Source: a virus (Duplodnaviria > Heunggongvirae > Uroviricota > Caudoviricetes). From it: DNA of 16,408 nt. The stretch covers positions 1 to 16,408 of IMG/VR virus record IMGVR_UViG_2617271072_000010; one strand, given 5' to 3'. Shown here in pieces: positions 14-16,408 of the stretch; position 1 is the stretch's first letter, and each line of letters opens with the position of its first letter. A program made the translations under genes and the position numbers. The notes below the pieces were generated by a model. That model was given only the letters and a program-made list of their open reading frames with translations. It did not search any database and had not been told where the DNA came from.

Positions 14-880
14 CTAAGCGAGGTTCTTGTTTTCAAATTGTTCCGGACTGAGGCCGCCACACCAACTGTGCCGCCGCCACCGATTGTAATCACATTCGAT
101 ATAATTAAACACCGTTGCCCGCATTATTTCCCGGCTGATAAAGTGTTCTCCATGGATACATTCCACTTTCAGCGAATGAAAGAAGCTTTCCACGCAGGCA
201 TTATCGTAGCAGCAACCTTTTGCGCTCATACTTCCACGCAGATTATGCCGCTTCAGTTGCGCCTGATAATCTGCTGAACAGTACTGGCCTCCACGGTCCG
301 TGTGAACGATAACGTTCCGGGGCCTCTTACGCCGCCACAGCGCCATCTGCAGGGCATCGCAGGCCAGTTGCGCCGTCATGCGTGGCGACATTGACCAGCC
401 AATAACGGCACGTGACCACAGGTCAATGACCACTGCCAGATACAGCCAGCCTTCATCTGTACGTAAGTACGTGATGTCTCCTGCCCACTTCTGGTTCGGG
501 CCACTGGCGTAAAAATCCTGCTCCAACAGATTTTCTGACACAGGCAGGCCGTGTGCGCGGTAGCTGACCGGGCTGAACTTCCGGGAGGCCTTTGCCCTCA
601 GTCCCTGACGGCGCAGGCTTGCCGCCACGGTTTTTACGTTAAAGGGGTAACCCTGAGCACGCAGTTCATCCGTCAGGCGTGGGGCACCGTAACGCTGTTT
701 TGACCGGGTAAAAGCCGCGAGGACAACGCTGTCGCAGTGTTGGCGGAACTGCTGACGCGTGCTTATCCTTGTCCGCCGCTGACACCACGTATACCAGCCG
801 CTGCGGGCCACCCGGAGCACGCGGCACATTGCTTTGATGCTGAACTCAGCCTGATGTTTTTCAATAAAGACATACTTCAT
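14..880 (-). CDS. insF: IS3 transposase OrfB (InsF), DDE integrase-type catalytic domain, 288 aa
   Basis: Translation [36 protein letters not shown]... is recognised as IS3 InsF; overlaps the upstream orfA by 4 nt as expected for the IS3 frameshift arrangement. Confidence 0.92.
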
Positions 881-1176
881 TTCAGGCGCTTCGCGAAGTA
901 TGTCGCGGCCTTTTGGAGGATAGCCAGCTCTTCATCCCGTTCTGCCAGCTGGCGTTTGAGACGTGCAATCTCGGTAGACATCTCCAGTTCACGTTCAGAA
1001 GACGTCTGCTGATTTTGCTGTTTACTGCGCCAGTTGTAGAGTTGTGATTCATACAGGCTGAGTTCACGGGCTGCGGCAGTAACACCGATGCGTTCAGCAA
1101 GCTTCAGGGCTTCACTGCGAAATTCAGGCGAATGCTGTTTACGGGGTTTTTTACTGGTTGATACTGTTTTTGTCAT
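877..1176 (-). CDS. insE: IS3 transposase OrfA (InsE), HTH/leucine-zipper part, 99 aa
   Basis: Translation [50 protein letters not shown]... from the ATG at 1176, preceded by GAGGTGA; the ORF track starts three codons earlier at 1185. Confidence 0.9.
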
Positions 1177-4222: not shown

Positions 4223-5072
4223 TCATAGTTGAACCCTAGCACTTCCACCATTTTGAACTGGTGAAATATAATCGGAGAACTCAGGATATAAGGAAATTTT
4301 ACCAGAGGTTAACATAAACATAAATGTACCGAAAAACTTCATGTGGAAATATTCATCATCTTTTGGAGTCAAGAAGCAACTTTTAAAGTTTTGCTGGCGA
4401 AGCATCGGGAATGGAAGTTTCACTCCATCCGGGGCTGAATAGGCAAGAAGCCCATCTTCGATACTAAGGATTAGGTTATGCCTATGCCTAAATTGTATTT
4501 CATCAGAGTAAAGATTATCTAGTTCATTTTCTATATTGCTTATATCAAAATCAAGCTTCTTACAGATCAATATGCTAGAATAAACATGAAAAGGGTTGTT
4601 TTCCGGATCAAAGTTAAAACTGCTAGAGTTAAAACTTAATGAAGGGTTTTTTATTCTCTCGGCGATTGCTTTATTTTTCGCCAGTTTGTTAATGGCGTCT
4701 CGAAAAGCAGCGCGAGATAAATTTGACTTAACCTCACCAATGCAGTAAACAGATTCAATTGGGAAAAACCTATGTTTATCTCCACCTTGAAAAAGTGGTG
4801 TCATTTTAGAATCAAAAATAACAACATCACACTGCGTGCTAATGTCATCCATCGCGGACATTAAAAAACCATTAGATATAGCAAGTCGCTGAGGAACTAT
4901 AAAGTTCAAAAAATCCCTTACTACCGACTCACGATATATTCCATATTCACCAGCATGAATAAGACGATTGTTTTCAGGATCATAAAAAACTTCAGTTGAA
5001 GTTGCGGAAAAAGAATTTTTTAAAAATATCTATTTTCTCACGGTATAGTGCATCAAATATCCTATTTGACAT
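4223..5072 (-). pseudogene. Low-GC cargo gene with a PD-(D/E)xK-like nuclease motif, family unassigned; split by a +1 frame change in a T5-A6-T5 run (reconstructed product about 283 aa)
   Basis: ATG at 5072 has a strong RBS (AGGAGG) and opens a 27-codon frame ending at 4992. The main frame (4223-4909, TTG start in the ORF track) is open back to 5029; one base fewer in the TTTTT/AAAAAA run near 5005-5020 joins them. Motif: ...CDVVIFD...(22 aa)...PIESVYCIGEVKSN (D then E-x-K). Confidence 0.45.
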
Positions 5073-6558: not shown

Positions 6559-7332
6559 TTAACAGCTCAGGGATCGGGATTCGAAGAAATGCGGCTGCGT
6601 CTCGCGCGGATTTGCGGGACTGGTGATGTTCTTGCCGAACATGCAACCTTTCGCTGTCAGCGACCAGAATTTTTTGATGTTGTTAATCGCGGTACGGCTG
6701 TATCGTTCGCGCTGCTCGACGATCCCCAGCTTCACCATCTGGTGATATGCCTGATTAGCCGTCAGGCGGATACCATACTGTTTCAGCAGTGCACTCAGTG
6801 ACAGTGTCGGGCGACTTGAGCCATCGTGTGCATCAGCAGGAGCATCAATGGCATAGCGCGGTGCCAGATTCGGTAAGCCAACAGCCTCCTGAAGTTTCTG
6901 ACAGGCTCCAAGCACTGAAGAGTTAGACAGATTTAACTCCCGGCGCATAAAGTCCAGCAGAATCACGCCAGCCTGCATCTTGTCAGCAGCCTGTCCGGAT
7001 AATTTTTCAGGTGCACTGGTTACCATGTCGAAAGTACGGATCACCTTCAGATGGAATGACGGGCTGATCCACATTGCATAGGCATACACCAGTTCTTTGC
7101 AGACATACGTCCCCTGGTTATTTCCGCCACGAATAACGTTAACTGGCTCTATATTGACCGAGTTGCAAATCTGCAACTCGCTTATTAAACGTTCAGTTTG
7201 CTCATTGCGGAGCCAGAATGCAGGCTTATGCTTATCCAGAGAACCGGCAGCCCTGTGCAGATCGTTCAGGCTGTAACGCCCATAAGCATCACGACGAACT
7301 TCAATACCATCAATGACCATCAGATTATTCAT
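6559..7332 (-). CDS. KilA-N plus KilAC (ANT) domain protein, antirepressor-like, about 257 aa
   Basis: MNNLMVIDGIEVRRDAYGRYSLNDLHRAAG...KPAFWLRNEQTERLISEL resembles the KilA-N domain; C-terminal half resembles KilAC. Start set at the ATG at 7332 (RBS AGGAG); the ORF track starts at 7365. Confidence 0.6.
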   Translation of the reverse strand: MNNLMVIDGIEVRRDAYGRYSLNDLHRAAGSLDKHKPAFWLRNEQTERLISELQICNSVNIEPVNVIRGGNNQGTYVCKELVYAYAMWISPSFHLKVIRTFDMVTSAPEKLSGQAADKMQAGVILLDFMRRELNLSNSSVLGACQKLQEAVGLPNLAPRYAIDAPADAHDGSSRPTLSLSALLKQYGIRLTANQAYHQMVKLGIVEQRERYSRTAINNIKKFWSLTAKGCMFGKNITSPANPRETQPHFFESRSLSC

Positions 7333-7741: not shown

Positions 7742-8064
7742 ACTTTCAGCCCCCTCTCATGTAACCAGTGGGCTGCACGCAGCCTGGCGTTTTCCTCACC
7801 GGCAAGCAGTGCGCGGATAATCCCGACCACCTCGCTGTCGTCGTCCTTCACCGCGGTATGAAGAGTTATCCCCCGGGCCACGCCACGCTTTATCGTGATG
7901 ACGCCTTTTTTCTCCAGTGCGCGAAGATGCTCCACCGCTGCATTCACCGAACGGTATCCCAGCATGGTTGCCACCTCCTGATTGGTTGGCGGAAAGCCAC
8001 GTTCTTGCTGGTAAGAAATCAGCATATCCAGCACCTGCTGCTGTCATTGAGTTAACGTCGTCAT
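7738..8064 (-). pseudogene. LexA N-terminal DNA-binding-domain protein (no peptidase domain) with an in-frame TGA at codon 7
   Basis: Frame from the ATG at 8064 (coupled to the upstream stop as TAATG) reads MTTLTQ-stop-QQQVLDMLISYQQERGFPPTNQEVATMLGYRSVNAAVEHLRALEKKGVITIKRGVARGITL, parallel to E. coli LexA [68 protein letters not shown]. The TGA (8044-8046) sits where LexA has Arg. Reinitiation at GTG 8034 or ATG 8025 could still give a 95-98 aa product. Confidence 0.55.
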
Positions 8065-11580: not shown

Positions 11581-11813
11581 TTCGCTCTTTAACAATCTGG
11601 AGATCCCCAACACTTAACGGGATTTTGGCTTCGGTTCTGGCGGTGAAGGACGAGGTTTTAAGGGTATATGATCCTCTTTCCATGTATATATAAATGCATT
11701 CATTTGGTCATCTCAATATAGAATCCATTATTAATTCATACTCATAAAGCCTGTGTGACTTTGGTGATGGTGGTCTGGGCTTTGGAGGTACATGGTTAGG
11801 GATTATGGGAATT

Positions 11814-14304: not shown

Positions 14305-15489
14305 CCATGGCGGCAAGGCCACGTAAAAAAGAATACAGACATCTTCCTGATTATCTGATTTTTGATAAAGATCGAGGTGTTTATAAATTCACACTTATTA
14401 CTGGAAAGAAGAAAAATATAGGTAAGGATAGGGCAATAGCCATTGCAATCGCCAGAGAGTACAACCTGAGGATGAGAGCAGAATTATCTCCATCAGTAGA
14501 AAATCTTATTAGAGAATCTGGCGGTGTTATCGGAGAAGCAAAACCATTTGCTGAACATGTTGATCACATAATGACCCGGATTATCGAAGACGAACGTCCT
14601 TCCCAGAGCACCTTAGATGACTGGAAAAATGACGCTCTACGCGTAAAAGCGTTTTTTCGTAAATGTTCCGGCATGCGATATCGAACTTGAACACGTTAAT
14701 ACCTACATCAACAAATATCATGCCAGCGCATCCGCAAATGTGCAGAACAGAAAGGTCAGCTTTCTTAAAAAAGTTGTTCTCTTATGCGGTCGATGAATCA
14801 CTAATGCTGGATAACCCGGCCATCAGAAAAAAAATGCGTAGGACTGATGAGAAGAAAAAGACGGCGCCTGTCACTCGAGCATTTTATAGCTATCAGGCAG
14901 GCCGCTGCACCATGGTTAAGAACAGCAATGGACCTAGCATTGCAAACTACACATGCACGACTCGAAGTATCGCGAATCCGTTACTCAATTCGCGAACCTA
15001 AAGACGGTATATGTGGATGTGTCTGGTTCGAACAACCACAAAATGGCATATATGGGACGCTTTACATCCACAGGCAAAAAGTGCAAAAAAAAAGAGGCGT
15101 CACACGTTGCAATACCAATTGGTGAAGAGTTGAAACGGATAATTGACGATAGCCGAGATAATGTGGCTAGTCCGTTTGTCGTTCACAGAATCCCAGAACG
15201 CCAAGTTAAACGAAGCAAAGAGGTTTCACATCCGACACAAGTTGCACCAGACTATTTGAGTCGATCGTTTTCAGCAACGCGAGACAAGCTAGGTTTATGC
15301 GACAATCTACCGATGGATGAAAGACCAACCTTTCATGAAATCAGAGCTCTGGCAGCGCATCTTTTCGATCAGCAGGGTATCGATCCCCAAGGACGAATGG
15401 CACATAGCGACGCTCAGTCGACTAAGATTTACACTCAAAACCACATTAATTGGATTGTCGTTCCACACGGGGAAATCAAAACTGGTTAA
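14301..15489 (+). pseudogene. int: Lambda-family tyrosine integrase split over four frame segments
   Basis: The N-terminal arm-binding region and the C-terminal catalytic region (...PTFHEIRALAAHLF...AHSDAQSTKIY...) are recognisable and follow lambda Int in order, but the frame changes at T6 (14652-14657), A6 (14767-14772), A8 (14827-14834) and A9 (15085-15093). Confidence 0.8.
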
Positions 15490-15688
15490 AATTGCATTAA
15501 TTCAGATTTTATCCTTGCATTGCTATGGTACAGACCTAAACAAGCATGTGCCAAAAACAGGCTATTGTAGGGATACTCACATCTTTCAGGTATTATATTT
15601 TGCATAACCGAAAGTGAGGCAACAAACAGAAATGCCATGCTTTTAAACGCGATACTTCACAATAAGAGTTAAGGTAAAAGGAGCGATA

Positions 15689-16408
15689 ATGGAAGATTTA
15701 GTATGTAGTTGGTCACCGAAACTAATCGTTGAACTGATAAAAAGCATTGCATGGCCAGTTGTTGTTCTTATCATCGGATTCAGATTCCGAACTCGAATTT
15801 TTGAAGTTGTCAGTTCTTTTTTTTCTAAAAATACGCTATCAGAAATATCCGCGACTTTATCGGGTATATCGGCAAAATTCATAGCAGAGAAACAAACAGC
15901 AGAAGTATTAGAATCTTCAAATTCTAATTTGGCGAGCTTACAAAAGAATACGAGCATTGAAGCTATAAGAATACACCATGAACAATTTAAAACTGAATTC
16001 AGTGAAGAATTATATCAAATCATATTGAAACAAGCATCTGATCTAGATACTGACAATGAAATTAAAATTGATTTATTGGCACGAGAAATATCTCTTTTGC
16101 AAAGTGCTGTAAGATACTTTGAAATAAACAAGGTATTATTCCGCTCACAATATGACTTATTTTATACAATTGCTAGCAATGGTGGTTATATCCGCAAAGA
16201 AGATGCTATTCAGTTCTTTGAAAAAACAAAAAATCATAATAAAGAAGCTTTCGCGGATTGGGATTGGATCAAATATATTTCGTATCCAGTAAGCAATAAA
16301 CTCATTTATGAAAGTGATGCTGGTTACAAACTCACTACGATAGGAAGCTCATATGTAGCTTTTATGTCAAAGAACCCACAATTGATTGACGAGCTTGCTA
16401 AATTATAA
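15689..16408 (+). CDS. AT-rich hypothetical protein with an N-terminal TM anchor, 239 aa; cargo gene distal to the integrase
   Basis: Ideal RBS (AAGGAG, 5-nt spacer) before the ATG at 15689; hydrophobic segment LIVELIKSIAWPVVVLIIGF; stop codon is the last three bases of the window. No family recognised. Confidence 0.5.
   Translation: MEDLVCSWSPKLIVELIKSIAWPVVVLIIGFRFRTRIFEVVSSFFSKNTLSEISATLSGISAKFIAEKQTAEVLESSNSNLASLQKNTSIEAIRIHHEQFKTEFSEELYQIILKQASDLDTDNEIKIDLLAREISLLQSAVRYFEINKVLFRSQYDLFYTIASNGGYIRKEDAIQFFEKTKNHNKEAFADWDWIKYISYPVSNKLIYESDAGYKLTTIGSSYVAFMSKNPQLIDELAKL

Follow-up and report, generated by a model that had tools for sequence, protein, structure and literature searches.

An AT-rich gene downstream of the integrase

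The DNA analysed here (the window, 16,408 nt) is the early, or left, arm of an e14/CPS-53-like prophage, in which ymfK/L, yfdR, Q, a lysis cassette and an IS3 element are present. At its end, a tyrosine integrase gene of the Arm-DNA-binding type (14307..15489, + strand) is followed by an AT-rich leader (15490..15688, + strand) and then by an ORF of 239 codons with an ATG start (15689..16408, + strand; RefSeq WP_023568684.1), the TAA stop of which forms the final three bases of the window. Whereas the integrase gene has a GC content of 0.434 and the whole window one of 0.473, the value falls to 0.36 in the 199-bp leader and to 0.326 in the ORF. The initial annotation had described an AT-rich ORF for a 239-aa protein directly after the integrase, preceded by an ideal ribosome binding site, and both points were borne out. 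The Shine-Dalgarno sequence AAGGAG, read from the sequence, is located at 15678..15683 (+ strand), 5 nt before the ATG, and the position of AGGAG upstream of the start codon is kept in the orthologues. The ORF is a real gene under purifying selection. First, at its base composition stop codons are expected at a frequency of 0.075 per codon, which gives a probability of about 7e-9 for 239 codons without a stop. Second, comparison of the E. coli gene with the Klebsiella, Dickeya, Citrobacter, Pectobacterium and Serratia orthologues gave dN/dS values of 0.13-0.23 at a dS of about 1. The coding sequence is identical in the 7 complete E. coli genomes that carry it, and the close homologues of the protein form 75 clusters, nearly all of which are exactly 239 aa long.

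The leader is part of the cargo cassette. Homology to sibling prophages stops at about 15490-15541, and some 160 bp of leader accompany the orthologues of Klebsiella, Citrobacter and Pectobacterium as well as the E. coli gene, and partly that of Dickeya. A conserved block, TTTCAGGTATTAT(A)AT, is found at 15584-15599 and may hold a candidate -10 element. When the surroundings of the ORF were scanned with consensus patterns, neither a sigma-70 consensus on the + strand nor an intrinsic terminator was found. An RNA structure in the 5' leader was also considered as a common feature of the family and was dropped, since RNAalifold returned no consensus pairs and the single-sequence z-scores were unimpressive (z -0.14 for E. 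coli). As a separate observation, perfect inverted repeats of 9-13 bp are located 35-60 nt 5' of the ATG in the Dickeya, Serratia and Klebsiella copies (L004 ~7940-7975, L029 ~7945-7970 and L017 ~6940-6975). These repeats occupy the same position in each leader, each with a different sequence, and could serve as operators or hairpins; the E. coli copy has none.

The integrase gene is broken in the window by four +1 insertions in homopolymers (14652, 14767, 14855 and 15085), and it is intact, with 392 aa, in EC_J_9 and strain 2196. Real pseudogenisation seems a less likely cause of these insertions than errors of long-read sequencing in homopolymers. Over the whole comparison with strain 2196, the window shows 12 substitutions and 12 indels of one base, of which nearly all fall in homopolymers; the further indels are at 5016, 8892, 9042, 9936, 10963, 11021, 12821 and 13431.

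Attachment site and location of the gene within the prophage

The position of the gene relative to the prophage boundary was determined by comparison with an empty site. In EC_J_9, the entire element lies between the tRNA-Pro gene proL and a yejO pseudogene, and in prophage-free K-12 the two are separated by 102 bp which contain no such ORF. Homology to the K-12 empty site picks up at position 11642 of the EC_J_9 locus (L001), corresponding to proL nucleotide 29. The att core (L001 11642-11698) is made up of the 3'-terminal 49 nt of proL and 8 additional nt, and it recurs at the opposite end of the prophage, where proL is intact; the resulting 57-nt direct repeat, CGTCATGGGG...GACCAAAAATCCC, is thus present at both ends of the prophage in EC_J_9. 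As the ORF ends at L001 11405, equivalent to window position 16408, a distance of 237 bp separates its stop codon from the att core, which is thus past the end of the window and not between the integrase and the ORF. This places the gene within the prophage, with int on one side and attR on the other. The observation that the initial annotation had named as a refutation, an att site between integrase and ORF combined with conservation of the ORF in prophage-free genomes, was accordingly not made.

The initial annotation had offered two readings of this position, namely att-proximal cargo of an integrative element or DNA of the host or of a neighbouring island, and the mapping supports the former and excludes the latter. 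The sharp drop in GC content and the break in homology directly after the int stop codon would fit a host chromosomal segment or a separate island. However, the att core and a conserved phage arm are found only further downstream, past the ORF, the K-12 site is empty of it, and in other prophages the two anchors enclose different cargos in its place, so that we regard this reading as extremely improbable.

Two observations concern the tRNA fragment at attR itself. ARAGORN found no regenerated tRNA at attR in six loci, in spite of a PGAP annotation in APEC O78. In the latter genome, RefSeq gives a 78-nt 'tRNA-Pro' at the attR fragment (L020 7460-7537), where only proL nucleotides 32-77 are present; since ARAGORN calls no tRNA there, this feature is probably an annotation artefact.

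A variable cargo slot between int and attR

The integrase gene is the left anchor of a slot in which the cargo varies among related prophages. Its 3' end is 82-86% identical among sibling prophages. Three loci (L001-L003) share this int end and, at the other side, a segment of 288-290 bp that takes in the att core together with a 129-bp arm and the beginning of the host DNA and is 93-95% identical in pairwise blastn. The 129-bp arm is conserved at 88-95% in the two siblings L002 and L003; when it was compared alone, it was matched over its full length at 88% in L003 and over 82 bp at 91% in L002. It is matched in part in three further siblings, L020 and L022 among them. The DNA between the int end and the arm is unrelated across L001-L003.

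Among eight sampled prophages with the same integrase, six unrelated cargos were found in a slot of 1.0-3.9 kb. They are the 239-aa gene; a gene for a 583-aa protein; a gene for a 289-aa protein on the opposite strand; a DUF2971 gene, which is the PADLOC candidate PDC-S31 (E 4.9e-22), together with a TPR pair; a pair encoding 283 and 66 aa; and a DUF4760 gene with an AbiLi-like ATPase (E 1.6e-64) and its small partner. The 3' fragment of proL is located downstream of the cargo in each locus where the fragment was found, and one locus (L023) gave no match. Because the siblings share the integrase and the att-side arm but carry unrelated genes between them, the int-attR slot is a variable cargo hotspot. 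As shown here, the gene studied is a genuine and horizontally mobile single-gene cassette in the int-attR slot of the proL prophage.

The integrase is common to 109 of 5,426 complete E. coli genomes (at least 80% identity), whereas the 239-aa gene is present in only 7 of them. Six of these seven records are 4.91-4.95 Mb in size, and the gene is located at about 1.63-1.67 Mb in five. Because both genome sizes and gene coordinates are similar, the seven carriers may reflect one acquisition.

Diversity hotspots with anti-phage systems between two conserved phage genes have been described in P2/P4 prophages and satellites (Rousset et al. 2022, PMC9122126). The proL slot resembles them in being a small, high-turnover locus between conserved anchors, with some alleles that are known defence systems and many that are unknowns. 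It differs in lineage, as it belongs to an e14/CPS-53-like myovirus at proL, and in its anchors, which are the int stop and the attR arm instead of the cos-adjacent genes of P2/P4.

Other accessory genes of the same prophage

Several further genes of the element have the appearance of accessory cargo. At the proL-proximal end of the EC_J_9 prophage, outside the window, a gene for a DUF262 protein (L009 21503-23392) matches a type IV methyl-directed restriction enzyme in PADLOC over its full length (E 0), and its neighbours include an invertase fragment and a DinI-like pseudogene. Accessory cargo is thus carried at either att-proximal end of the prophage. Within the window, a second AT-rich moron (4223-5071, - strand; GC 0.33-0.36) is located between the Q antiterminator gene and the holin/endolysin genes. 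It encodes a DUF6602 protein with matches to PADLOC PD_DExK (E 2e-30) and to the NucC nuclease (E 6e-19), and it is interrupted in the window by a T insertion at 5016. A gene for a 159-aa hypothetical protein (WP_000196297; 11814-12293, - strand; GC 0.39-0.41), just past the gene for the CI-like repressor ymfK, may be another small moron; no match to it was found in PADLOC.

The window and its relatives also differ around an IS3 copy, which is located beside a Rha gene in the window (14-1176, - strand; compare L001 829-1991) and abuts a truncated KilA-N gene instead in EC_J_9 and B1S11. About 35% of the window lies outside the match to EC_J_9 and B1S11, apparently the stretch from Rha to DUF968 including the lysis genes and Q, which suggests an IS3-mediated deletion in these two genomes.

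Predicted architecture of the 239-aa protein

The protein is predicted to consist of an N-terminal membrane module and a C-terminal winged-helix domain. An acidic N-tail of 9-11 residues with invariant W8 and P10 is followed by a predicted TM helix at residues 12-32 (15722..15784, + strand) with the invariant motif W22-P23 ('AWP'). The best 19-residue Kyte-Doolittle window has a value of 2.18 at residues 12-30, with values of 1.8-2.8 in the family, and this single hydrophobic helix is the same family-wide, in agreement with the one N-terminal TM helix that had been proposed. The helix is followed by RFRTR and then by an amphipathic stretch. By the positive-inside rule alone, the acidic N-tail and the RFRTR after the helix suggest an N-out/C-in topology, in which the protein would be tethered to the inner membrane with its winged helix in the cytoplasm.

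The most conserved part of the family is the segment SE.SA..SG.SAKF at residues 48-66 (15830..15886, + strand), which has a mean majority fraction of 0.77 and was modelled by AF2 as a beta-hairpin at low confidence (pLDDT < 50). A variable linker separates it from the C-terminal domain at residues 145-239 (16121..16405, + strand), which carries three motifs: FRSQ closes a long helix, WDWIKY belongs to the recognition helix and YKLT..G.SY to the wing. The helical part and the winged-helix domain were modelled confidently (pLDDT 82-96), and the helix-strand-helix-helix-hairpin topology is present; the invariant residues of the domain are F151-R-S-Q154, W191-D192, Y196 and G219. The majority fraction is 0.68 for the TM helix and 0.67 for the winged helix. 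As the TM helix and residues 48-66 are conserved as much as or more than the winged helix, the sequence comparison argues that the membrane part does more than hold the protein in place.

The soluble domain had been described as Lys/Glu-rich, and this was a mild overstatement: Lys (19) and Glu (20) are frequent among the 239 residues, but Ser (27) and Ile (26) are commoner. It contains 18 Lys and Arg against 23 Asp and Glu, with a pI of 5.2 (6.9 for the winged-helix part), and has few conserved basic residues. Such an acidic-to-neutral domain is atypical for a DNA binder, and because it is not basic, it could equally well bind a protein as DNA. These properties bear on the proposal that the protein is a membrane-tethered regulator or accessory factor, either a winged-helix transcription factor for prophage or host genes or a modulator of neighbouring defence systems. 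The acidic pI and the scarcity of conserved basic residues do not favour it, it would not explain why the TM helix and residues 48-66 are so strongly conserved, and the neighbouring genes differ in every context, with the E. coli gene alone in its slot. We therefore consider a regulatory role unlikely.

Family searches and distribution

The initial annotation had recognised no family, and this is correct for the curated libraries: searches of Pfam, PADLOC, PHROGs, NCBIfam and the PDB sequences with the 239-aa protein returned nothing, and in PADLOC-DB 2.0 there were 0 families at E <= 10. The only flicker in Pfam, DUF7659 (E 0.037 over 30 residues), was dismissed as noise. Profile and structure searches, which had been suggested as a next step, were productive in part, as the soluble domain can now be called a winged helix, but they yielded no curated family, and Foldseek against PDB and BFVD gave no match at E <= 1e-3 and no full-length analogue. 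The closest fold is that of HTH_45 (Pfam) and Sso10a (NCBIfam). Of 39 remote homologues, 25 match PF14947 (best E 9.5e-7) and 23 match NF053610, whereas the 239-aa protein itself has no match, so that its homology to HTH_45/Sso10a would be transitive only. The remote relatives also give weak, generic winged-helix matches in PADLOC (WH_III-A, E of at least 1e-3). The archaeal Sso10a chromatin proteins are soluble, without a membrane anchor or a long helical stalk, in contrast to the 239-aa protein, which has both.

A profile search of 1.84 billion representatives retrieved 933 proteins at E <= 1e-3, most of which are 205-250 aa long and have the same layout. The hosts of the 75 close clusters are Enterobacterales, Aeromonas, Alteromonas, Pseudoalteromonas, Oceanimonas, Thalassolituus, Halospina, Marinobacter, Vibrio and one Desulfobacterota MAG. 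No homologue was found by tblastn in 50,697 deposited phage genomes. The gene is rare and patchy, with 7 carriers in 5,426 E. coli genomes and 11 in 185,579 species representatives. Its GC content is 0.33-0.37 in 9 of 11 copies, 0.41 in Oceanimonas and 0.44-0.45 in Halospina and Marinobacter, while the flanks range from 0.36 to 0.60. In the literature, WP_023568684 is unmentioned, both WP_023568684 and WP_136342864 are absent from the DefensePredictor supplements, and for membrane-anchored winged-helix defence proteins only analogues were found.

Genomic neighbourhoods of the relatives

No conserved partner gene was found across 16 contexts, and the contexts themselves are diverse. The Dickeya gene is located in the cargo region of an ICE, the Thalassolituus gene adjoins IS elements, and the Klebsiella genes are carried near ParB and helicase genes on non-mobilizable IncFIB plasmids of about 110 kb, which we tentatively read as phage-plasmid-like. 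In Pectobacterium, the gene is part of an island with a P4-type integrase, AlpA, H-NS, AIPR and CcdAB. The orthologue of Alteromonas sp. S005 (L037 10001-13318) is directly beside a gene for a 547-aa tyrosine integrase that abuts the tmRNA gene, and the integrase-adjacent cargo position thus recurs in an unrelated island.

This distribution bears on the possibility that the gene encodes an addiction or toxic membrane protein, or that it is a selfish passenger which hitch-hikes on mobile elements without benefit to the host. In its favour, the gene is AT-rich, has a rare and patchy occurrence and is invariably associated with mobile DNA, either within it or next to it. However, purifying selection acts over dS > 1, the length of 239 aa is strictly kept across orders of Gammaproteobacteria, and no antitoxin-like gene is adjacent, which makes this possibility quite improbable.

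Known and candidate defence loci are found near several relatives. Lamassu is near the Oceanimonas gene (LmuA 2.6e-114, LmuB 1.6e-170), Olokun near the Serratia gene (OloB 2e-181, OloA 3.8e-77) and TIR-TM near the Enterobacter gene (6.5e-78). A gene for the PADLOC candidate PDC-S71 (about 590-607 aa) is located beside family members in two unrelated genera, 0.26 kb downstream in Vibrio (L027 8988-10811; 1.4e-198) and 3.3 kb downstream in Marinobacter (L038 13990-15756; 1.1e-243), and this neighbourhood could be a coincidence or a recurrent pairing. In addition, a Schlafen/AlbA_2 protein is encoded adjacent to the Citrobacter gene, a reverse transcriptase adjacent to that of a Desulfolunaceae MAG, and a SIR2_2 protein near a distant relative in a metagenome. 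The association of the family with defence loci is strong but circumstantial.

Possible function of the cassette

The most likely role of the gene is, in our estimate, exclusion of phages or other mobile elements, to which we give a probability of about 0.45. The protein would act as a single-gene, inner-membrane-tethered exclusion or abortive-infection factor expressed from the lysogen. We infer this role from two kinds of neighbourhood: the sibling slots hold an AbiL-like pair and PDC-S31, and the relatives adjoin Lamassu, Olokun, TIR-TM and PDC-S71. In the proposed mechanism, the cytoplasmic winged helix would recognise nucleic acid or protein of the invader at the membrane, and the membrane module, consisting of the AWP helix, the amphipathic stretch and the 48-66 segment, would then oligomerise or engage a membrane partner. 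The outcome would be abortive infection, in which the cell is depolarised, or a block of genome entry.

A narrower possibility is non-lethal superinfection exclusion of the kind exerted by Sie2009, Ltp, SieA and HK97 gp15, in which binding to an ejection or tape-measure protein of related phages, or to the end of their incoming DNA, would block genome entry. The gene is prophage-encoded, integrase-adjacent and membrane-anchored, its non-basic winged helix is compatible with protein binding, and a distant relative is located on a contig with an Imm_superinfect gene. Sie2009 (lactococcal) and Ltp (S. thermophilus TP-J34) are likewise integrase-adjacent prophage genes with a membrane-tethered soluble domain, and theirs are expressed in lysogens. 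The soluble domains of both face outward in Gram-positive hosts, and that of Ltp consists of HTH-like repeats which bind a phage protein. In contrast, the domain described here is predicted to be cytoplasmic, no sequence similarity to Sie2009 or Ltp was detected, there is no Pfam match to the known Sie or Imm families, and the family also has members outside prophages, namely on an ICE, in islets flanked by IS elements and in defence islets of the chromosome that lack a phage backbone. This form of exclusion therefore has a low but appreciable probability.

Turning back to exclusion or abortive infection in the broader sense, the nearest counterparts in logic are PdpSau from S. aureus prophages (278 aa) and AbiP from Lactococcus, which are membrane-anchored single-protein abortive-infection factors (PMC10127798). 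They are similar to the 239-aa protein in being encoded by an accessory gene of a prophage, in combining an N-terminal membrane helix with a cytoplasmic domain of a ligand- or nucleic-acid-binding type, and in size (239 against 278 aa). However, the PdpSau domain is OB-like and positively charged, whereas that of the 239-aa protein is a winged helix and acidic to neutral, and the PdpSau gene is located by the lysis module instead of by int. Homology to PdpSau was rejected, as hhalign against 80alpha PdpSau gave a probability of 0.2% over 8 aligned columns.

No homology to any validated defence protein was found in PADLOC, PHROGs, Pfam, NCBIfam or the PDB sequences, and the 239-aa protein is outside every described defence family. 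It is a membrane-anchored, single-gene candidate carried as cargo of a prophage hotspot. A more far-reaching reading, to which we give somewhat less than even odds, is that it founds a new family of single-gene anti-phage or anti-MGE proteins, which would combine an inner-membrane module with a cytoplasmic, non-basic winged-helix sensor. The approximately 930 representatives with the same layout (205-250 aa, AWP helix, FGSQ and winged helix) would then form a widespread and overlooked class.

In conclusion, the gene is a plausible candidate for a defence function and would be inexpensive to test. New immune genes are often found in prophage hotspots, and the int-attR slot at proL, found in about 109 complete E. 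coli genomes, adds one such hotspot, several alleles of which are uncharacterised. The 239-aa family is compact and can be tested easily, as it requires one gene and no partner, and its combination of a membrane anchor with a winged helix matches no validated defence protein. If the protein is inactive against phages, the gene would be an ordinary hypothetical moron. If it is active, it would provide a new sensor-effector layout and a handle on the membrane-tethered detection of incoming phage.
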